The translations under genes were made by a program, and so were the position numbers. Below, one piece after another: positions 43,362 to 51,871 of a stretch of 52,398 bases of DNA. The notes beneath the pieces are model-generated. The model worked only from the letters and a program-made list of their open reading frames with translations. It did not search any database and was not told the DNA's origin. Within the stretch, counting starts at the first letter, position 1. Each line of letters begins with the position of its first letter. The DNA is from Clostridiales bacterium (GTDB taxonomy: Bacteria > Bacillota > Clostridia > Oscillospirales > CAG-272), in assembly GCA_004554105.1 (NCBI GenBank), contig SFNW01000001.1, positions 1 through 52,398 of the forward strand, read 5' to 3'.

Positions 43362-44477
43362 ATGGACGTCAAAATCTACGTCAACCCCGAATACAAGGAC
43401 GCGCTGTGGAGCACGCTTGCGATTCGCGCCATCAACATCGAAATCATGCGCAAGCGCTACACGCCTGTCTTTATCGACGCGCCCGAGGTCGGCGACATCG
43501 ACTTCGACCACCTCTACGCGCCGGGCGAAAAGCGGCTGATGATTTACATCGGCGCGTCGATTGCAGTCACGCCTGCGGTACTCGCCCGCTTCAACGACTG
43601 CGGCGTACACGTCGTCTTTCTCAATTACGAGTCGCCGAAATTGGTCAGCGGACACTCGAAGATTCTGCTCAACTACAAGGACGGTATGCGCAAGGCGATC
43701 AACTACCTCGTCGCCTGCGGCAGGGAAAACATCGCGCTCTACGGCATCAATCCCAATTCCTCGACCGATATGATCAAGGACGCGTTTTTCGCCGACTATC
43801 TCGGTCAGCGCGGCGGTAACCCCTCGCGCGACATTTACTACAACTACGCATCGCTGCGCGGCTGCTACGCCCGCTTTACCGAGAACTGCCACAGCTACAA
43901 CGCGGTCATCTGCGCCAACGACGTCGTCGCGCTCGCGCTTATCTGCCATCTGCGCGAAGCCGGCGTGCGCGTACCCGAGGACCTGTTCGTCGTCAGCTTC
44001 GGCTCAACCGTTCTCGCCTCGATGTCCAATCCCACAATCACCACGGTGGCGGTCGACCACGAGGAGCTGGGCAAGCAGGCAATCCTCGCCTACGCCTATC
44101 TCTACAAAAACCCCGGCGACATCACGCTGACCGCCAAGGTCGACGCCAAGCTGAATATTCGCGCCTCCACCGCCAATATGGAGAATCACGGCAAGGACAT
44201 TTTCGCCTCGTTCCTGCCGCAGACGCCAAACGTCAACTTCTACGACGACCCGGTTACACAGCGCGTTTTTGAGGCGGAAAGCCTGCTGCTCGGCTGCGAC
44301 GAGCTGGACCACGGCATTCTCGCGGGCATTCTCGCAGGCGAAACCTATCCGAGCATCGCAGAGCGGCTGTTCACCTCGGAAAACGTCATCTCCTACCGCA
44401 TCAAGCGAATGTGCAAAGCCACCGGCTGCAACAAAAAATCAGAGCTGGTCGCCCTGCTTTCGCCGTATATCAAATAA
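43362..44477 (+). CDS. Hybrid regulator: LacI-type periplasmic-binding-fold sensor domain with a C-terminal LuxR/GerE-type HTH
   Basis: No N-terminal HTH is present. The central region resembles the Peripla_BP fold (NIALYGINPNSSTDMIKDAFFADY, NAVICANDVVALALICHLREAGVRVPEDLFVVSFG). The C-terminus LDHGILAGILAGETYPSIAERLFTSENVISYRIKRMCKATGCNKKSELVALL is LuxR-type. Confidence 0.7.
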   Translation: MDVKIYVNPEYKDALWSTLAIRAINIEIMRKRYTPVFIDAPEVGDIDFDHLYAPGEKRLMIYIGASIAVTPAVLARFNDCGVHVVFLNYESPKLVSGHSKILLNYKDGMRKAINYLVACGRENIALYGINPNSSTDMIKDAFFADYLGQRGGNPSRDIYYNYASLRGCYARFTENCHSYNAVICANDVVALALICHLREAGVRVPEDLFVVSFGSTVLASMSNPTITTVAVDHEELGKQAILAYAYLYKNPGDITLTAKVDAKLNIRASTANMENHGKDIFASFLPQTPNVNFYDDPVTQRVFEAESLLLGCDELDHGILAGILAGETYPSIAERLFTSENVISYRIKRMCKATGCNKKSELVALLSPYIK

Positions 44478-44485
44478 GTTTTCTT

Positions 44486-44530
44486 ATATGTGTAAAAAAG
44501 TGCCCCGCAGGGCACTTTTTTTACACATAT
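44486..44530. terminator. Bidirectional terminator between the convergent regulator and radical SAM genes
   Basis: 45-nt palindrome atatgtgtaaaaaagtgccc-cgca-gggcactttttttacacatat. Confidence 0.85.
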
Positions 44531-44535
44531 ACTTT

Positions 44536-45942
44536 TTATTTTTTGCTTTCCGCCGCAGCGTCTTTTTCCGCCGCTTCATTGGCAAGCCGCTCCTTTGCCG
44601 CGCGATAAGTCGCCTCCACGCGCCGCTTGAGCGCAGTCTCCTCGATTAAACGCTTTGCCTCGTCGCAGGCGTCGTGCCCTTCGTCCGGGCATTTCTTCAA
44701 CCGGATACAGCGCGGAAAAACGGGACACCCGCCGCACAGCGCTCGACTGTTCAGGTATGCGGAAAACTCCGTAACCTTCTCGGCGTTATTGACGCCGCTG
44801 TAGATGTCCCCGACGAACTCACTTTCCGCAAAGTGCTCACACTTTCCGATTTTCCCGCTCGGCAAAATCGTGACGGCACGCGGCGAATCCGCCATGCAAT
44901 GATTGATTTTGATTTCGTTTTCAATCGGTGCCGCTCGCAGCAGCCCCTTGTCCGCGCAATACTGCTCAAACGCAAGCAGTTCCTGCGCACGCGCAAGCCT
45001 TGCCGCAGAATCCTGCGCGACAATCCGATTCTGCGTATAGTCGAACAAAAGATGCGGATAAGCGGAAAGCAGCTCTCGCTCCGAATAACGCTCGCAGAGC
45101 CAATCAACCAGCGCGTACAAATCCTCTTTATTATGTTCGCCCATATTCATACGGACCGAGACGCGAATGCCGCTTTGCAGCAAGCGTTCGATATTATCGG
45201 TTACGACGCGAAACGCACTGCGCCCGTCTTTATAAATAAACGCTTTCGCTTTGTTATAAACGGCTTCGGTTCCGTCCAGCGTAATCTGCACACGGCGCAG
45301 CCGCCAAAGTTCTTTCGCCCGTTGAATCATCTCACTGTCAAACAGATAGCCGTTCGAAACCATTGCCGAACTGTATTCGGCGCCCGCCTCCCGCAAAGCG
45401 GTACAGATGATGTCAATCACGCCCGCATTGTACAGCGGCTCTCCGCCGAACCAATGCAGCGAAATCTTCTCCGAGCCGTGCGTGCGAAGAATAAAATCCG
45501 CAACGTCCCGCGCGGTCTGCTCCGACATGGGGACACGCGCCGTGCCCAGCTCATAGCAGTAAAAGCACCGTGCGTTACAGTCTGTGGTTGTGAAAATCGT
45601 GTAGCCGGACAGCCCCTTGTTTCTCTGCAAATCCCGCGCCAGCGCCCGCGCCTCGCAGGAAAGCTCAATGTCATCATGGTCGGTCGGCACCAAAAACCAT
45701 TTGCGGATAAGCGGCACGGCTGCCCCCTCCGCCGCCACCGTCTCTTTGCGAAGTACGGCGGCTTCGTCGGGCTCAAGCTCAAGCATTTCGCCGGTCAGCG
45801 TATTGTATGCGATGTCCGCGCCGTCCGCTTGGGTTAAAATGCTAAAGGAAATCGGGCGATAGATTTTATCTGTTTCAACCGGCTGCTCGCCAAGCAATTT
45901 TAAAAACAGTTTATCCTGCTGAACCAGTTCAAGCATCCGCAT
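44536..45942 (-). CDS. Radical SAM/SPASM-domain peptide maturase with an N-terminal ~100-aa (RRE/PqqD-like?) extension
   Basis: CNARCFYC (CX3CX2C), FGGEPL and ITLDG are present. SPASM-type Cys pattern HC-X13-G-X4-C followed by CGGCPVFPRCIRLKKC. SD GGAAAGGAAGGAA. The start overlaps the upstream ORF by 14 nt. Confidence 0.85.
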   Translation of the reverse strand: MRMLELVQQDKLFLKLLGEQPVETDKIYRPISFSILTQADGADIAYNTLTGEMLELEPDEAAVLRKETVAAEGAAVPLIRKWFLVPTDHDDIELSCEARALARDLQRNKGLSGYTIFTTTDCNARCFYCYELGTARVPMSEQTARDVADFILRTHGSEKISLHWFGGEPLYNAGVIDIICTALREAGAEYSSAMVSNGYLFDSEMIQRAKELWRLRRVQITLDGTEAVYNKAKAFIYKDGRSAFRVVTDNIERLLQSGIRVSVRMNMGEHNKEDLYALVDWLCERYSERELLSAYPHLLFDYTQNRIVAQDSAARLARAQELLAFEQYCADKGLLRAAPIENEIKINHCMADSPRAVTILPSGKIGKCEHFAESEFVGDIYSGVNNAEKVTEFSAYLNSRALCGGCPVFPRCIRLKKCPDEGHDACDEAKRLIEETALKRRVEATYRAAKERLANEAAEKDAAAESKK

Positions 45943-46654
45943 TTCCTTCCTTTCCGTGCGCTTTCATCCCGTCATACGCAACATGCGCCGCCTCGGGATT
46001 TATAGTACAGAAGAGCAAATAACACGGCACGGCTTGAATCAGGGCGTCTGCAAGTTCCATTTGACGTGCGAGATTGGTAGAATCGCTTACCATGATCTGA
46101 CCAAACAGTTTGGGAACAGCCTCCTCGGCGGAAATACGGCGGATTCCGTTCTCTGTTCCGCGCTTGAGAAAACAAAGACCGCAAAGCGGCACGCGGGTAT
46201 TGACATTATACCCCTCCTTGCCGCACCACGGCGTACCGTAAGCATAAATCTTGCCGTCGATTGCGCGCAGAATCGGCTTGTCCCCGTTGACAATCGTCAC
46301 CTTATCCTCGCCGAAAGCCTTTTGCCATAGGCGAATGTGTGTCGTCTTTCCGGTGCCGCTCGGCGCAGAGAACGCATAGCCGCGCCCCTCATATTCGATG
46401 ACCGCGCAATGCATCAAAAAAGCGTCGTGTGCAAGCGCATAGGCGCAAATTTTACGGTAAACGGCAAGCGATTCGCGCTCTTCATTCGGGATAACCGCGG
46501 TGCCGTCCCCCTCTGCCTGCATATCCGACGCTGTTACGCGAACGCAAAGGTCGACGCGCGGTGCGCTATCGCAGCGATATGTCTCGCACATTCTCTCCAG
46601 CTTCCGATACTGCGGCTCTATATCTATATAAAATCCCGCAATCTGATATACCAT
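45929..46654 (-). CDS. HPr kinase C-terminal-domain-like P-loop protein (putative peptide kinase/accessory protein)
   Basis: 241 aa. It has the Walker A motif SAPSGTGKTT followed by VNGDKPIL and YGTPWCGKEG. It is translationally coupled to the radical SAM gene. Confidence 0.65.
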   Translation of the reverse strand: MVYQIAGFYIDIEPQYRKLERMCETYRCDSAPRVDLCVRVTASDMQAEGDGTAVIPNEERESLAVYRKICAYALAHDAFLMHCAVIEYEGRGYAFSAPSGTGKTTHIRLWQKAFGEDKVTIVNGDKPILRAIDGKIYAYGTPWCGKEGYNVNTRVPLCGLCFLKRGTENGIRRISAEEAVPKLFGQIMVSDSTNLARQMELADALIQAVPCYLLFCTINPEAAHVAYDGMKAHGKEGNADA

Positions 46655-46736
46655 CGTGTTTTCCCCTGTAAATCTATCCTTTTATGCAGCAGAAATACTC
46701 TGTTATCGGTTTCGGTATATAAGCTCCTTAGAAGAA

Positions 46737-46778
46737 CAAAGGAGTGGAAAGACTCCACTCCTTTGCTTTCGGGCAAAA
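46737..46778 (-). terminator. Two adjacent stem-loops between the precursor ORF and the modification genes (partial terminator / mRNA-stabiliser)
   Basis: Minus strand: cttttgc-ccgaaa-gcaaag, then aaaggagtgga-gtctt-tccactccttt followed by GTTCTTCT. They begin 4 nt after the peptide stop codon. Confidence 0.55.
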
Positions 46779-46781
46779 GCC

Positions 46782-46907
46782 TTATGACATTTCTTCTTCG
46801 CCCATATCGGTGGGGCAGCTGGGGTTGTACGTGGGGCAAGTAGAAGAAGCGATGATCTCTACAGTCTCGACGCTAACGAGCTCTGCAGCAGGTGCAACAT
46901 ACTTCAT
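46782..46907 (-). CDS. 41-aa candidate RiPP precursor peptide MKYVAPAAELVSVETVEIIASSTCPTYNPSCPTDMGEEEMS
   Basis: Hand-translated and absent from the ORF track. GGAGG lies 11 nt upstream of the ATG. It has a dedicated promoter and sits directly upstream of the HprK-like and rSAM/SPASM genes. The sequence reads as a leader-like N-half and a Cys/Pro/Thr core. Confidence 0.7.
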   Translation of the reverse strand: MKYVAPAAELVSVETVEIIASSTCPTYNPSCPTDMGEEEMS

Positions 46908-46945
46908 GGTTATGTAATCCTCCAATGTAAATATCCGCATCATGT

Positions 46946-46980
46946 ATGTATACATTACCACATATTTGCCGCTTTGTCAA
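46946..46980 (-). promoter_or_regulatory. Sigma-A promoter of the precursor gene (TTGACA-17-TGgTAATGT, extended -10) overlapped by palindrome ATGTATACAT
   Basis: -35 at 46975-46980 and -10 at 46952-46957. A 10-bp perfect palindrome lies at 46946-46955. Confidence 0.65.
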
Positions 46981-47047
46981 TACAAATCTGTAAGTTTTTT
47001 ATAAATCGCGGCTCATGCAGAGCCGCTGTCCCGAGCGTCCCCTGCGC

Positions 47048-47076
47048 AAAAAAGCACCCCGAAGGGTGCTTTTTTG
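47048..47076 (-). terminator. Rho-independent terminator after the 429-aa ORF
   Basis: aaaaaagcaccc-ttcg-gggtgctttttt (minus strand), 9 nt after the stop codon. It insulates the peptide cassette from upstream transcription. Confidence 0.85.
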
Positions 47077-47084
47077 TATTGGGA

Positions 47085-48374
47085 TTACTGCGCCAAATAA
47101 GCCTTTGCCATGTCGCTGTAATGCATGATCGAGTAGTACAATACGCGAAGGGCTTCGGGATTGCTCAGCGCCTGTCCCGTCGTCGCCGTGTACTCAAAGC
47201 CGTCAAGGTAGTGCGTCTTCAGTACGCGCGACTGCGCTTCCGTGCCGTATCCGCTGTAGATGTTGATCGTCAGCTTCTGTCTCAGGTTCGCCGCCGACAA
47301 CCGATCCAGCTTGACAATCGGCATACTGCCGCTCGTGTTCCACTCGCTGCTCGGAATGACAACCGTCTGCGCTGCGCCCAGATAGTCGGTATACTCGCAG
47401 ACAAACGTAAGGTCGCTGTAGTCCTTGTTCGCTGTATCCGCAGGTCTCAGCGTGATGTTGAGAACGATCTTATCCAGCAGTTCACCCGTGATCTTCGTCG
47501 CCGTGAAGACTGCCGTCTCGCCCTCTACCAGTTCGTCAATCGTTCTCGTTCCGGCCAGCACCGTATCGCTGCTGTAGTCTGCAAGGCTGCTTCTCTGCAG
47601 CTCTGCAGCAAGGCTTGCGTTGACGAGGTTCGCCGTGTTATAGCCGAAATTGGTCTGCGCCGCCGCACCGTAGTTCAACAGTGCCGCCGCGAGATTCATC
47701 TCCGCATCGCCCGTCGCGCCGAACTCATACAGCTTCGCCGCTATCGAGTTGTCGCTCAGCGTTCTGTAATCGACCGTGCCGTCCGCATTGATGCCGTAGA
47801 ATGTTACGCGGATTGTGTTACCCATGCAGGACGCCGGTATGCCGTCCGCAACATAGATATACGTGCTGCCTTCCAAAACCTTATCCGTAATAATCAGGCG
47901 TCTTGCCTTCGCATCCGCCGTCGGGGACGTGATATCGCTTCCGTCCGCGCTGCAAAGGTCAATGACCGCATAGAACGCTTTATACGCATCTACAGTCGCC
48001 TGGCGTGCCTGAATCTTATACTCGACCGAAGACTTCAGTACCAGCGTCTGCTTTGAGAGAATCGCGCTGTTCTCGGTCACCGCATTCGGGCGAACGATTG
48101 CCATGACGGCTGCGGGCGTATACTTTACGATCGTGTCTTCAACGATTGCATCGCCGGAGCGCATATATCTGCCCGTGACGTCGAGCGTGTACTCGCCCGA
48201 AACCGTGATGCCACTGTAGTCGCCTGCGAGGTAGCAATTTTCCGCCGTATAGGTATGCGCGCCGGAGGAAACCTCAAACGTCCCGCAATACCGGCAATTC
48301 TTGCACAAAGTCGGGCTTTTGCGCCTTTTTCGCCGAATTTCGCCGCAAATCGCCCCGCAAGTCGGGCTGCGCAC
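47085..48374 (-). CDS. Hypothetical Thr/Ala/Ser-rich protein with a Cys-rich N-terminus; start uncertain
   Basis: Long ORF whose composition resembles cell-surface proteins. The N-terminus reads TCGAICGEI...LCKNCRYCG. No signal peptide and no strong SD are present at the GTG at 48374. Confidence 0.5.
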   Translation of the reverse strand: MRSPTCGAICGEIRRKRRKSPTLCKNCRYCGTFEVSSGAHTYTAENCYLAGDYSGITVSGEYTLDVTGRYMRSGDAIVEDTIVKYTPAAVMAIVRPNAVTENSAILSKQTLVLKSSVEYKIQARQATVDAYKAFYAVIDLCSADGSDITSPTADAKARRLIITDKVLEGSTYIYVADGIPASCMGNTIRVTFYGINADGTVDYRTLSDNSIAAKLYEFGATGDAEMNLAAALLNYGAAAQTNFGYNTANLVNASLAAELQRSSLADYSSDTVLAGTRTIDELVEGETAVFTATKITGELLDKIVLNITLRPADTANKDYSDLTFVCEYTDYLGAAQTVVIPSSEWNTSGSMPIVKLDRLSAANLRQKLTINIYSGYGTEAQSRVLKTHYLDGFEYTATTGQALSNPEALRVLYYSIMHYSDMAKAYLAQ

Positions 48375-48419
48375 GGCTTCTTCGGGACAGTGTGCCCTGC
48401 CCGCGCTGCCGTCAGGCGC

Positions 48420-48454
48420 AAAAAAAGAAGAGAGCCGAAGCTCTCTTCTCTTTT
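48420..48454 (-). terminator. Rho-independent terminator after the S-layer-type gene
   Basis: Minus-strand hairpin gaagagagc-ttcg-gctctcttc followed by TTTTTTT. Confidence 0.85.
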
Positions 48455-48469
48455 AATTGGTTTGTTCGA

Positions 48470-51400
48470 TTACTTTACAATCTTGTAAACCGTCATCTCG
48501 AGCGCGCCGTTCGAGTAGGTTGCGGTAGCGGTAAGCTCAACCGTAATCTCCTCGTAGTCAGCTTCTTTCTCGAAGGTTGCAAGGTCTGCATAATCGCCGT
48601 ACTCAACGTCTGCGGCAGGAACGATAATCGTCTTGCCTGCGAACTCGTTGACGAAGTTATCGAATACGCCTGCAGCAGGCTCGACAACATCTACAACCTC
48701 ATCTGCAGCAAGTGCATAGAAGAAGTAGCTGTCTGCGTATTCCTGCATCAGAGCGACATCCTTGTAGGTCTCCTGATCCTCTTCGGAAGCGGAATCAGCA
48801 AGGATTGCGTTCTCGTAGTCGTATGCCTTCGTGTCAATACCGGTAACATCGAGCGTTACAACCTTGATATTGATCTTCGTGACATCGTCTGCGCTGATTT
48901 CGGGATCAGCAAGGCCGATCGACTCACCGTCAACGAAGTTCATGCCCTTGAGGTCAACAACCTTGACATTCTCGTCGTCAGCGAGCTTCTTTGCTGCCTC
49001 GGCAACAGAGAGGACGCCCTCTGCGGCAAGAACACCGTTGTCGTTGAGGTACAGGAGGTCGCCGCCGACAACCTTGTTGAATGCGTCAGCATCCTTGTAG
49101 GTCTCAACGTTAACCGTAACGGCGTCAACCTTCTTCAGGGTTCTGAGGTCGAACAGGTTAGCAACGGTTACATCGTAGGTCTCATCGTCAGCGATGTTGA
49201 TATCGACGTCAACATCGGCAAGAGCTACATAGTAGGTAGCATCTGCGCTTGCGCCGACAGACTTGCCCCAGTCAGCAAGCTTCTTGATCTCATCGTTCTT
49301 GAAGGTCGTCTTTGCGCCCGTGATATCCATCAGGATCAGCGAGGAGTTCGCGGAGAGAACCTTAACCTTGTCGAAGCTTACGGATCTGCTTGCCTTCTGT
49401 ACGCCGGTGCGAACTGCAACGGTCGTGCCGTCAACGAGGACGATAACCGTGTCGCTAGCGAGCGATACACGAGCAGCATCAACATCGTTGTCGGTCGTGA
49501 GCATGTTGGTCTTAACGCTGGTATCCGAGAAGGTCAGAGCCTTGTTGGAAGCAACTGCTTCGGTACCGAATGCGAGGAAGTTGCCGGAGTAGATGTCAAC
49601 ACCGGGGGTGTCTTCAAAACCGTCGGTGTTGCCGGCGAGGTCATATACGCCGTTCTTCTCGTCAACTACGAGGAAGATTGCAGCGCCGGTCAGAGCGCCC
49701 TTGATGTCAACAAGCGCTTTATGATCCTTGTACGAAGCACCGATCATGTCTTCATACTTTGCGAGGGTTGCAACGTCCTTGCTCGTCTCGAAGACTTCGT
49801 CCTCAGCGTCAAATGCGCCGTAGTGGAAGTTCTTCAGCGAAGCAAGCTTCCAGTTGCCGGTTGCCTTGTCGAGAACTGCGATAGCAACGTAGCCGTTGTC
49901 ATCGATGTACAGACCCGAGGTCAGCGAAGCGTTGTACTTGGAAACGGTCAGGCCGAGCAGGTCTGCCATGGTCTCCTCATCAACCGTTACAACTGCGTAA
50001 TCGAAGATTGCGCCGTCGCTCGAAGAAGAGCCGTCAACAACTTCCATGTAGACGACGTTGCCGTCAGCCTCAATGTACTTAACGTTGTTCTTGCCTGCGG
50101 TCAGAGCAGCGGTGAACTCGGTTACGTCGAACGCAGCCAGCTTGTCAGCCAGGTCGCCCGCGAACGCGCCCTTGAAGCCGACAGTCTTGTTTGCACCGTC
50201 GATCTTAACGGTCGAGTTCTTGGAGTTCGCGCCGGTCAGTCTGCCTTCCTTGAAGGCACCGTTGTTCTGCGCAACGGTCAGAATGTTATCAACAGCGTTG
50301 TAGCTGTAGAATACGAAGTCGCCGGACTTAACCGATTCGCCCTCGAGCGTAACGGCCATAGCCTTTGCACCTGCATTCTTGGAAACCGAAGTGGTGGACT
50401 CGCTGACCTTTGCAGCCGACTTCGTCGTTGCACCTACGAGGTACTCAACAAAGTTGGTCGACTCGCCGTCGAGGTTCTTATAAGCGGTCGCATCATACTC
50501 ACCGATGGTCGTGAAAGCCACATCCTTGCTGGTGGTCTGATAACGGAGCGTACGGGTGAAGTACTGACCGAACGAATAGGGCGTGTAGAGAACAACTACA
50601 ACGTCGGCAACGACGTCGTCCTTCGTGTCATCGGTGCCCTTGTCGTCAATGGTAACGTCCTCTTCAACGTAGTACTGAACCTTACCGTTGGAGTTGGTAG
50701 CGTTATCGTAGCCGTCCTTGGAGTCATAGACAAATGCGTCAAAGAACGCATCGGCAGCGGTGTTGGAGAATGCCCAACCATCCTCGGTGAAGGTTGCAAC
50801 GACCACAACCGTGTTCTTTGCGGTGAACTTCGTGCCGCCGAGCGTCAGCGTGTCTTCGGTAGCCTTGATGTTGCCTGCGTTGCCGAGGTTTTCAACCGTG
50901 GTAAAGGTCTTGAACTCAGCGTAAACGACAGCAGCCTCAGACTCGTCTGCATCGGTGCTGTACTTCGCCTCGAAGTCCTTAGCAGCGACGTCAACAAGCA
51001 GAGTTACGGGCAGACCCAGGTAACCTACCTTCGGGGTCTTTGCCGTGATGCCGAGGTCAGCAGCTGCGAGCGTCAGAGTGCCGACTTCGGACTCGACGAC
51101 AACGGTATCGACCTCGTCGTCGTTCTCAGCCTCAACGAACTCGGTGATAACGCCTTTGATCTTGCCCGAAGCGTAGCCCGCGTCCTCAAGGAGGGTAACG
51201 CGCTCAATCGGCTTAGCGTTGGGGTTGCCGGAAAGAAGCGTATCAGTCAAACCGGTTTCGCCGGGGTACAGGATCTTGTCGCTCAGCGGATCGACAACTG
51301 CGATCTCGGTGTTGAGCATGTTCCACATGATCTGCGAGGTCTCACCTCTGGTCAGAGGAGCGGTGTAGTTGACCGTCTTTGCAACATCGTCGGTCAGACC

Positions 51401-51871
51401 CAGCTTCTGAGCAGCGAGGATGTAGCCGTAAGGATAGGACATATCCTCGGTCTCGTAGCCGAGCGCGCGGACTGCCATAACGAGCATATCCTGATAGGTG
51501 ATCGGGTCGTTGTAGCCGAAGATACCGTTGCCACGACCTACGACAAGCTTTCTGCCGTAAGCGTAGTCAATCGCGGTGCCGTACTCAACGACATCCTTGA
51601 AGTATGCGCTCGTCTTCTGTGCGTTCCAAACGTCTACCGAAGTCTCTCCGGAAAGCGCCTGAACGAAGAACAGAGCCGCCTGATAACGGGTAACGCCATT
51701 ATCAAGCATCAGATTACCGTTGTCACCCTTCATAATCTTGAGGGCAACAAGGTGCTGCGCAGCGTCGGTATAATCAGCCGTCGTGTCCGCAGCGCCGGTC
51801 GTAATGACTGCTACGCTCAGGATCATGAGCGTCGCCATTACGAGCGAGAGAAATTTCTTGAAGTTTCTCAT
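48470..51871 (-). CDS. Large SLH-domain cell-surface (S-layer-type) protein
   Basis: Signal peptide MRNFKKFLSLVMATLMILSVAVITTGAA. Three N-terminal SLH-like repeats (FKDVVEYGTAIDYAYGRKLVVGRGNGIFGYNDPITYQDMLVMAVRAL and others). About 900 aa of Thr/Val/Asp/Ala-rich sequence follow. Codon usage is strongly biased. Confidence 0.85.
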   Translation of the reverse strand: MRNFKKFLSLVMATLMILSVAVITTGAADTTADYTDAAQHLVALKIMKGDNGNLMLDNGVTRYQAALFFVQALSGETSVDVWNAQKTSAYFKDVVEYGTAIDYAYGRKLVVGRGNGIFGYNDPITYQDMLVMAVRALGYETEDMSYPYGYILAAQKLGLTDDVAKTVNYTAPLTRGETSQIMWNMLNTEIAVVDPLSDKILYPGETGLTDTLLSGNPNAKPIERVTLLEDAGYASGKIKGVITEFVEAENDDEVDTVVVESEVGTLTLAAADLGITAKTPKVGYLGLPVTLLVDVAAKDFEAKYSTDADESEAAVVYAEFKTFTTVENLGNAGNIKATEDTLTLGGTKFTAKNTVVVVATFTEDGWAFSNTAADAFFDAFVYDSKDGYDNATNSNGKVQYYVEEDVTIDDKGTDDTKDDVVADVVVVLYTPYSFGQYFTRTLRYQTTSKDVAFTTIGEYDATAYKNLDGESTNFVEYLVGATTKSAAKVSESTTSVSKNAGAKAMAVTLEGESVKSGDFVFYSYNAVDNILTVAQNNGAFKEGRLTGANSKNSTVKIDGANKTVGFKGAFAGDLADKLAAFDVTEFTAALTAGKNNVKYIEADGNVVYMEVVDGSSSSDGAIFDYAVVTVDEETMADLLGLTVSKYNASLTSGLYIDDNGYVAIAVLDKATGNWKLASLKNFHYGAFDAEDEVFETSKDVATLAKYEDMIGASYKDHKALVDIKGALTGAAIFLVVDEKNGVYDLAGNTDGFEDTPGVDIYSGNFLAFGTEAVASNKALTFSDTSVKTNMLTTDNDVDAARVSLASDTVIVLVDGTTVAVRTGVQKASRSVSFDKVKVLSANSSLILMDITGAKTTFKNDEIKKLADWGKSVGASADATYYVALADVDVDINIADDETYDVTVANLFDLRTLKKVDAVTVNVETYKDADAFNKVVGGDLLYLNDNGVLAAEGVLSVAEAAKKLADDENVKVVDLKGMNFVDGESIGLADPEISADDVTKINIKVVTLDVTGIDTKAYDYENAILADSASEEDQETYKDVALMQEYADSYFFYALAADEVVDVVEPAAGVFDNFVNEFAGKTIIVPAADVEYGDYADLATFEKEADYEEITVELTATATYSNGALEMTVYKIVK

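Follow-up and report, generated by a model that had tools for sequence, protein, structure and literature searches.

Thioether bridges between cysteine and acidic residues are made by the enzymes PapB and QhpD; the small subunit QhpC, once cross-linked by QhpD, is incorporated into quinohemoprotein amine dehydrogenase. A second kind of peptide modification is found in lasso-peptide clusters of the paeninodin type, where HprK-like enzymes phosphorylate the precursor. An HprK-like protein, ScmC, also belongs to the SynChlorMet cassette; to our knowledge, neither a function of this cassette nor an activity of ScmC has been demonstrated. Here we analysed a stretch of 52,398 nucleotides from a Clostridiales bacterium (assembly GCA_004554105.1, contig SFNW01000001.1; the window in the following), in which a compact minus-strand cassette encodes a 41-amino acid precursor peptide (p), an HprK-like P-loop protein (K) and a radical S-adenosylmethionine (rSAM)/SPASM maturase (R). 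We consider this cassette to be, with good probability, a reduced member of a large family of peptide-modification systems of the RiPP type (peptides that are ribosomally synthesized and then post-translationally modified) that occur in Clostridia of the gut and rumen and have relatives among Bacteroidales; the mechanism proposed for it builds on the comparisons described below.

A first-pass annotation, made from the sequence alone, had described a RiPP-like cassette with an rSAM/SPASM maturase and an HprK-like accessory protein that could not be assigned to a named family. The open reading frames (ORFs) of 41, 241 and 468 amino acids are present at the positions and with the motifs given there, and the maturase matches, the predicted fold of K and the conserved precursor support this description; all curated family scores were missed. 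In the cassette and its relatives, we observed the genes with their folds and motifs, their linkage, a leader followed by an acidic core with Cys, and a hairpin after p. The features of the cassette are:

46952..46980, minus strand: candidate promoter of p, with -35 TTGACA, a 17-nt spacer and a TGn-extended -10 TAATGT, read by eye
46782..46907, minus strand: precursor gene p (41 aa), from the ORF with its Shine-Dalgarno sequence and a profile match
46731..46770, minus strand: hairpin with U-rich tail in the p-K spacer, from fold energy and equivalents elsewhere
45929..46654, minus strand: K, P-loop protein of the ScmC family (241 aa) whose fold resembles HPr kinase and PEPCK, from AlphaFold 2, Foldseek and homologs carrying PF27840
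44536..45942, minus strand: R, 468-aa radical SAM/SPASM peptide maturase with an N-terminal domain of about 115 aa, from Pfam, NCBIfam, a PDB profile search and Cys conservation

In order to place the cassette in a wider context, 185,579 species-representative genomes (one per species) were scanned, and 80 of the 476 confirmed loci were analysed. The window precursor (MKYVAPAAELVSVETVEIIASSTCPTYNPSCPTDMGEEEMS) is divided into a leader (MKYVAPAAELVSVETVEIIASS) and a predicted core (TCPTYNPSCPTDMGEEEMS), and a profile of equivalent ORFs (31 seeds, the window peptide among them) recovers it at E = 6e-12 as the sole match in the 52-kb window. A short ORF sharing this leader, which ends small-x-Ser, adjoins R in 56/80 loci (49 at profile E < 1e-3), on the strand of R in all but five of the 56. 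The conserved short ORF that the first-pass annotation expected beside the enzymes is therefore found in most loci, which favours the RiPP reading. The leader has the form (K)Y-x-x-P-E-M-E-V-V-E-F-x-x-E-D-V-I-T-T-S across the family and M-K-Y-T/V-A-P-x-A-E-L-V-x-x-E in the clade of the window. When nine precursors (that of the window and eight from other loci, including Bacteroidales) were compared with NCBIfam, no meaningful match was obtained, and the window peptide, never called as a gene, is missing from a collection of ~15 billion predicted proteins.

Some loci carry two to five precursor copies. In three of these multi-precursor loci, the leader is kept in a copy with a cysteine-free core (L016 6631..6750, L068 7051..7233, L020 7151..7291). 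In Prevotellaceae and Bacteroidaceae (L032, L072, L076), relatives of the maturase adjoin precursors of another type, whose leader is long and acidic and has a double glycine at its end; L032 additionally has a SpoIIE-like phosphatase gene between two maturase copies.

Next, we examined the cores, defined as the sequence after the junction Ser; this Ser was set by a splitting rule, though it is also visible in the alignment. The 53 distinct cores are mostly 11-26 residues long, have a median net charge of -4 and usually contain one to three Cys (51/53 with at least one). Asp, Glu or Asn occupies position Cys+3 at 58/109 Cys positions compared to a mean of 28.5% in shuffled cores, and Pro occupies Cys+1 at 22/109; in both cases none of 5000 within-core shuffles reached the observed value, although the core sequences are mutually related, so that this test overstates their independence, and are nonetheless very diverse. 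The resulting signature, C-x-x-[D/E/N], is present in 42/53 cores. The window core carries it as C31-P-T-D34, next to a second motif, C24-P-T-Y27-N28, with Tyr at +3 and Asn at +4. As far as the sequences go, this signature fits Cys-to-acidic-residue thioethers in the style of PapB and QhpD.

The maturase R carries the rSAM motif CNARCFYC (CX3CX2C) at residues 122-129 and a C-terminal Cys pattern, C349-x13-G-x4-C368 ... C403-x2-C406-x5-C412-x5-C418-x7-C426 (with C403GGC406PVFPRC412). In a set of 30 homologs that reaches down to 40% identity, none of these ten Cys (three rSAM and seven SPASM-type) varies. Pfam assigns Radical_SAM (E = 5.9e-17) and Fer4_12. The nearest solved structure is CteB (5wgg; profile E = 1.8e-20), to which the G-x4-C hairpin of R aligns, followed by a weaker match to SkfB. 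Among the best 25 of 62 matching NCBIfam families, TIGR04463 ranks first (137 bits, cut-off 525), and the other top matches are Clo7bot, CefB, PapB, geopeptide, FlmE/OhkG, nif11-type, QhpD and SCIFF. These peptide-maturase families, though all matched below their cut-offs, agree with the assignment of R as a peptide maturase. No anaerobic sulfatase-maturase family occurs among these best 25 of 62, and a small precursor is present, so the grouping that the first-pass annotation had named as an alternative is not what we find. A conserved domain of ~115 aa at the N-terminus of R can be aligned with the N-terminal ends of the models TIGR04463, Clo7bot and CefB and is presumed to be a leader-recognition element; some R homologs have an added PF05402 domain.

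With the CteB/SCIFF and PapB/freyrasin ranthipeptide systems, the cassette has in common the rSAM core, the seven-Cys SPASM pattern, an additional N-terminal domain and an adjacent precursor with a Cys-containing core. PapB also resembles it in the acidic partner a few residues from Cys, with C-x3-D there and a preferred C-x-x-[D/E/N] spacing here. The cassette differs from both systems by its leader family, its kinase-like partner and the SipW-like peptidase of its relatives, and R scores far below their cut-offs (PapB NF047865, 96.1 bits versus 340; SCIFF maturase TIGR03974, 46.6 bits versus 425). QhpD/QhpC is comparable in that an rSAM/SPASM enzyme forms Cys-to-Asp/Glu thioethers in a small polypeptide that then works with larger secreted proteins. 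However, R reaches only 56 bits against TIGR03906 (cut-off 453), dehydrogenase subunits are lacking, and the predicted substrate is a leader-bearing peptide of 30-60 aa.

It is conceivable, but in our view unlikely, that R installs another modification, such as an epimerisation or a carbon-carbon or carbon-oxygen cross-link. R lies outside every characterised family, two precursors have no Cys, and Tyr is also common at Cys+3 (12/109), all of which would suit such a chemistry. Set against this are the Cys in 51/53 cores with its strong positional partner at +3, the complete seven-Cys SPASM pattern as in CteB, and the fact that the nearest characterised relatives of R (CteB, PapB, QhpD, SkfB) all make thioethers. 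Thioether formation thus stays the preferred assignment for R.

The second enzyme, K, contains the Walker A motif SAPSGTGKTT. It had been likened to HPr kinase and to ScmC. In our local Pfam copy, K has no match, Hpr_kinase_C included, and the NCBIfam ScmC model TIGR04249 gives 22.6 bits (cut-off 125); almost all K homologs, by comparison, carry the newer Pfam family PF27840, named 'ScmC', which bears out the link to ScmC. An AlphaFold 2 model built from 38 homologs (pLDDT 93.6) has HprK/P and PEPCK as its top Foldseek matches (probability 1.0), with E = 5e-7 and TM scores of 0.54-0.58 on target for the HPr kinase/phosphorylase structures 1kkl/1jb1, so that the resemblance to HPr kinase holds at the level of the predicted fold. 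The K profile itself reaches only E = 0.024 against the PDB, and its N-terminal 75 residues are unrelated to HprK. His82 and the P-loop, both invariant, align with the HprK signature H-G-x-x-v-x-x-x-G-x-G-x-l-x-x-G-x-S-G-x-G-K-S, and two further motifs, N-G-D-K-P and G-x-P-W-x-G-K-E, are fully or almost fully conserved. On the basis of sequence and model, K appears to be an active enzyme that uses a nucleotide and belongs to the P-loop proteins of the HprK/PEPCK class. It shares with HPr kinase/phosphorylase the kinase fold, the P-loop and the upstream His signature, but neither the Hpr_kinase_C match nor the N-terminal HprK domain.

Compared to SynChlorMet, the cassette likewise pairs a PF27840 'ScmC' HprK-like P-loop protein with an rSAM/SPASM maturase. 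It differs in having a single rSAM gene in the window instead of two maturases (ScmE, ScmF), neither of which is among the best 25 of 62 families matched by R; moreover, K misses the ScmC equivalog cut-off, and the precursor, the host range (gut Clostridia) and the neighbouring genes differ. The likeness to the paeninodin-type kinases lies in the HPr-kinase-fold protein within a RiPP cluster, but no lasso cyclase or B protein was found in the window or related loci. Because cores ending in Ser are rare (2/53), phosphorylation of a C-terminal Ser, as by the lasso-peptide kinases, was ruled out as the conserved role of K.

K lies near R in 40/80 loci, adjacent or nearly so and in either order, except in L025, where it is located ~4 kb downstream of R on the opposite strand. 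As half of the loci with similar leaders do without it, K is an accessory and not a core enzyme. A hydroxyl acceptor within the core was also ruled out as a universal target, given six K-linked cores without Ser, Thr or Tyr. A single conserved peptide target of K, if there is any, must therefore lie in the leader or else be a carboxylate or thiol; within the leader, the invariant junction, rich in Thr/Ser, suggests itself as the candidate. Natural fusions, sought among the best 150 K relatives of an exhaustive search, include one R-K fusion (P0398), four fusions of K with the peptidase X described below (P0285, P0304, P0363, P0385), two with an NTP_transf_5 nucleotidyltransferase (P0281, P0289) and one with a Y_phosphatase3 domain (P0319). 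Such proteins speak for a common substrate of R, K and X, and P0319 lends some support to a phosphorylated product. Because of the K-X fusions, we favour, with low confidence, a junction phosphorylation by K that is tied to cleavage.

Alternatively, K could serve as a scaffold or chaperone that depends on a nucleotide and offers the precursor to R and the peptidase, or as a kinase for another target, a possibility we rate as clearly the less probable one but take seriously. K is dispensable in half of the loci, the cores offer no conserved hydroxyl acceptor, and the fusions to the peptidase or to R are what would be expected of a docking module; ScmC proteins are not known to have a demonstrated activity, and a literature search found no paper on one. 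The invariance of the P-loop, of the HprK His and of N-G-D-K-P, which sits at the position of the HprK catalytic Asp-Asp, argues instead for catalysis, and the Tyr/Ser phosphatase-family fusion P0319 suggests a phospho-product. We therefore regard an enzymatic role of K as the likelier one.

The enzymes are widespread. R has more than 3,600 homologs and K more than 1,600 in a word-indexed search; an exhaustive search for K returned 1,751 clusters (50% identity) at E <= 1e-30 and 6,933 at E <= 1e-10. All 80 analysed loci come from metagenome-assembled genomes (MAGs) of human, ruminant and other animal guts, and the wider family derives nearly entirely from human, livestock and wild-animal gut metagenome genomes. 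The hosts are mostly Oscillospiraceae, Acutalibacteraceae and other Clostridia, together with Bacteroidales and Prevotella; the closest relatives of the window are uncultured Eubacteriales/Oscillospiraceae MAGs. Clustering of neighbouring ORFs revealed a recurrent Clostridial gene order: a surface-protein gene (U), p, R and K in either order, a peptidase gene (X) and an exporter gene (T).

X, a protein of ~155 aa, is present in 22 loci, 21 of which also have K (X loci: L015, L017, L019, L021, L024, L027-L030, L035, L039, L041, L043, L047, L049, L053-L055, L057, L058, L065, L070). Its motifs G-x-S-M-x-P, H-R and G-D-N are invariant; 20/21 members match archaeal-type signal peptidase I (TIGR02228), 10 match SipW, and the best PDB match is SEC11A. 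X thus resembles SipW of the tapA-sipW-tasA operon in its motifs and in being encoded beside its likely substrates. Unlike SipW, it lacks a membrane anchor at the N-terminus and in some cases forms a fusion with K, and it does not occur in the window; because the anchor is missing, its predicted active site is probably cytoplasmic. Leaders in X loci end T/A-x-S, which fits the small -3/-1 residues preferred by signal peptidases. T is an ATP-binding cassette (ABC) exporter with ABC_membrane and ABC_tran domains, usually 3' of X; linkage was counted only where proteins with both domains follow X, and the T profile also caught unrelated ABC importer ATPases in the wider clade of the window (L006-L011, L081). 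The window and L001-L004 contain only p, K and R, followed by a convergent regulator gene. The first-pass annotation had noted that a protease and an exporter were missing from the unit. This is true of the window but not of the family, in which fuller relatives carry the SipW-like peptidase and the ABC exporter, and it is a feature of a reduced locus in the clade of the window.

In the subclade nearest the window (L006, L008-L010, L081 and L082), other genes come after the cassette instead, for a membrane protein of the VCA0040-like type, an unassigned protein of ~100 aa and a short peptidase of the M50 family. These are possible alternative genes for export and cleavage.

The most unusual feature of the family is the linkage between U and the precursor gene. 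Of 45 loci with a plus-strand precursor, 24 carry the region for the U C-terminus immediately upstream of their first precursor gene (L005-L010, L012, L015, L019-L021, L028, L029, L033, L041, L043, L047, L049, L054, L058, L065, L066, L070, L077), and U is found in 17/23 K-containing loci that have at least 900 nt upstream of p. The gap between U and p measures 15-125 nt, often 15-55 nt. As this gap is short, no terminator was noted in many loci and a hairpin follows p, U and p are likely co-transcribed in many species, to judge by sequence, with read-through into the enzyme genes. Full-length U proteins have a signal peptide, often a lipobox-like L-x-G-C, a cohesin-like region, repeated C-x-x-C modules and a C-terminus of two repeats, each ending ...YGxAAxxYF. 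The U family has no Pfam assignment. In its AlphaFold model, two FN3/Ig-like sandwiches each lead into a long helix, and Foldseek returned only generic FN3/cytokine-receptor-like sandwich pairs with low TM scores, so the fold was dropped as a functional clue.

The U copy of the window (region 47085..48470) lacks a signal peptide, the model shows disorder over its first 97 residues, and compared to the 97%-identical relative P0241, it diverges exactly upstream of 'LAGDYS'. For these reasons, it appears to be truncated at the 5' end, as a remnant of a rearrangement; its gene begins after the terminator of an SLH gene. Contigs break 170-370 nt upstream of p, within the 3' end of U or immediately beyond it, in L001, L002, L003, L006, L007, L008, L010, L023, L029, L081 and L082. 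For contigs carrying P0049, none of the places returned had more than ~1.2 kb upstream. Since independent assemblies break there, the C-terminal module of U appears to be multi-copy or strain-variable.

This linkage raises the possibility that the cross-linked peptide is a partner of the secreted U (a ligand, a small subunit or a surface-bound factor), by analogy with QhpC, rather than a free bacteriocin or signal. We regard this as improbable, though somewhat less so than a different chemistry of R. It would explain why U precedes p in more than half of the 45 loci across distant genera, often with no terminator noted in between, why the link persists in the clade of the window and why SLH or other surface proteins recur near the cassette; QhpD-type Cys-Asp/Glu thioethers would also fit C-x-x-[D/E/N], and R does score against TIGR03906. 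However, some complete-looking loci do without U (e.g. L004, L035, L053, L057), the U domains are generic FN3/Ig-like modules without a recognisable peptide-binding site, and the window copy of U appears truncated, with a strong terminator between it and p. In L005 and L007-L009, SLH-domain proteins sit between p and K/R, and cell-envelope genes are a recurring context.

The surroundings of the cassette comprise the following features:

47047..47076, minus strand: intrinsic terminator separating the U gene from the promoter of p, from fold energy
44485..44531, minus strand: bidirectional intrinsic terminator at the cassette end, common to the convergent regulator gene, from fold energy
47085..48374, minus strand: U, conserved upstream partner, C-terminal part of a secreted surface-protein family, family profile E = 7.5e-82
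43362..44477, plus strand: convergent regulator gene, neighbour, domain partly read by eye
48470..51871, minus strand: 1133-aa protein with signal peptide and SLH domain, directly upstream of U, with its own terminator

Strong terminators on both sides of the unit, as previously proposed, were confirmed: 47047..47076 folds with -23.7 kcal/mol (z = -5.9 versus shuffled sequence) and 44485..44531 with -29.3 kcal/mol (z = -8.4). The closest relatives of the window show the same order of the U stop codon and a terminator-like hairpin. The description as an insulated unit holds for these terminators but not for function, since the U family adjoins the precursor gene in so many loci. Upstream of p, a GGAGG Shine-Dalgarno sequence (46919..46923) lies 11 nt before the ATG, and the ORFs of R and K overlap by 14 nt. 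A scan of the region upstream of p for a consensus promoter found no sigma-70-like site. By eye, a perfect -35 TTGACA is present at 46975..46980, followed by a 17-nt spacer and TGgTAATGT; this -10 element is extended but agrees with TATAAT at only 3/6 positions. The promoter is thus plausible as a weak call, and "near-consensus", as it had been described, was an overstatement.

The intergenic region between p and K contains a 14-bp hairpin with a U-rich tail after the p stop codon (-37.6 kcal/mol, z = -3.5). Of the two stem-loops previously described here, the hairpin is present, but the minimum-energy fold is a single nested structure. A hairpin with a U-run also follows p in 19/20 other loci and is likely a partial terminator (attenuator) that yields an excess of precursor mRNA. 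The reported low GC content is seen clearly at third codon positions (0.58 in K and 0.65 in R compared to 0.81 in neighbouring genes). Overall, the dip is modest, with 53.3% in the cassette, 57.9% in the whole window and 62-64% in the left flank, and the right flank with the U and SLH genes is low as well (53-56%). The convergent regulator has a periplasmic-binding-protein-like domain and, by eye, a C-terminal LuxR-type helix-turn-helix. It is kept beside the cassette in the four closest relatives (L001-L004), which may reflect plain synteny or a dedicated regulator.

Based on these data, we propose that p would be transcribed from its own promoter, with the hairpin passing only part of the transcripts into K and R. 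The N-terminal domain of R would bind the leader (KYxAPxAELVxxExxxxxxxS), and R, by means of its rSAM cluster and two SPASM auxiliary clusters, would link a core Cys to a nearby residue. The likeliest acceptor would be Asp, Glu or Asn at Cys+3 (in the window peptide, C31-P-T-D34), and the product would contain small thioether rings like those formed by CteB, PapB and QhpD. K would act on the same peptide as an ATP-using P-loop enzyme of the ScmC/HprK type; its likeliest reaction would be phosphorylation at or near the conserved Thr/Ser of the leader-core junction, given that Ser, Thr and Tyr are all missing from several K-linked cores. In the fuller relatives, the SipW-like peptidase would cut after the small-x-Ser junction and the ABC exporter would release the acidic product, whereas in the genome of the window cleavage and export would be supplied from elsewhere. 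The core chemistry of the cassette is probably conventional.

Several observations weigh against this proposal. Concerning R, the Pfam SPASM model gives no match at E <= 0.1, the best matches are all peptide maturases but each far below its curated cut-off, and ten isolated N-terminal domains of the R family have no Pfam match to PqqD/RRE (RiPP recognition element) at E <= 10. Thioether formation is most likely, judged from sequence motifs and relatives, and the link could be to an alpha, beta or gamma carbon or be of another type; two of the 53 cores have no Cys at all. Concerning K, the protein is missing from half of the loci with similar precursors, and seven cores, six of them from K-containing loci, are free of Ser, Thr and Tyr. 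Finally, the window holds no protease or exporter gene. We nevertheless regard the cassette as a probable RiPP-type system.

A joint reading of all components would treat the system as a peptide module tied to a surface protein instead of a self-contained bacteriocin cluster, and would combine a thioether-bridged peptide that is co-made with U and acts with it, as a QhpC-like ligand or small subunit, with K as a true peptide kinase whose phosphorylation of the Thr-Thr-Ser junction gates the SipW-like cleavage. We consider this combination a long shot; if true, it would give the ScmC family its first function.

A literature search on HPr kinase/ScmC with radical SAM, ranthipeptide and SPASM gut themes found no paper describing this system, and published work on Bacteroidales, the Hungate1000 collection and radical SAM RiPPs (RaS-RiPPs) does not cover it. 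For the maturase and the precursor, no curated model or name was found. The family is real and widespread, and newly added here are the fuller relatives with a SipW-like peptidase and an ABC exporter, the natural fusions and the linkage of U to the precursor. These results present the ScmC/HprK-like family as a recurrent partner of radical SAM maturases, and the natural fusions to R, the peptidase and the phosphatase, together with the compact three-gene form, offer a convenient entry point to ScmC/HprK-like function. The pairing of precursor and surface-protein genes hints that a RiPP may have a role at the surface of cells of abundant gut anaerobes, which would be unusual if true.

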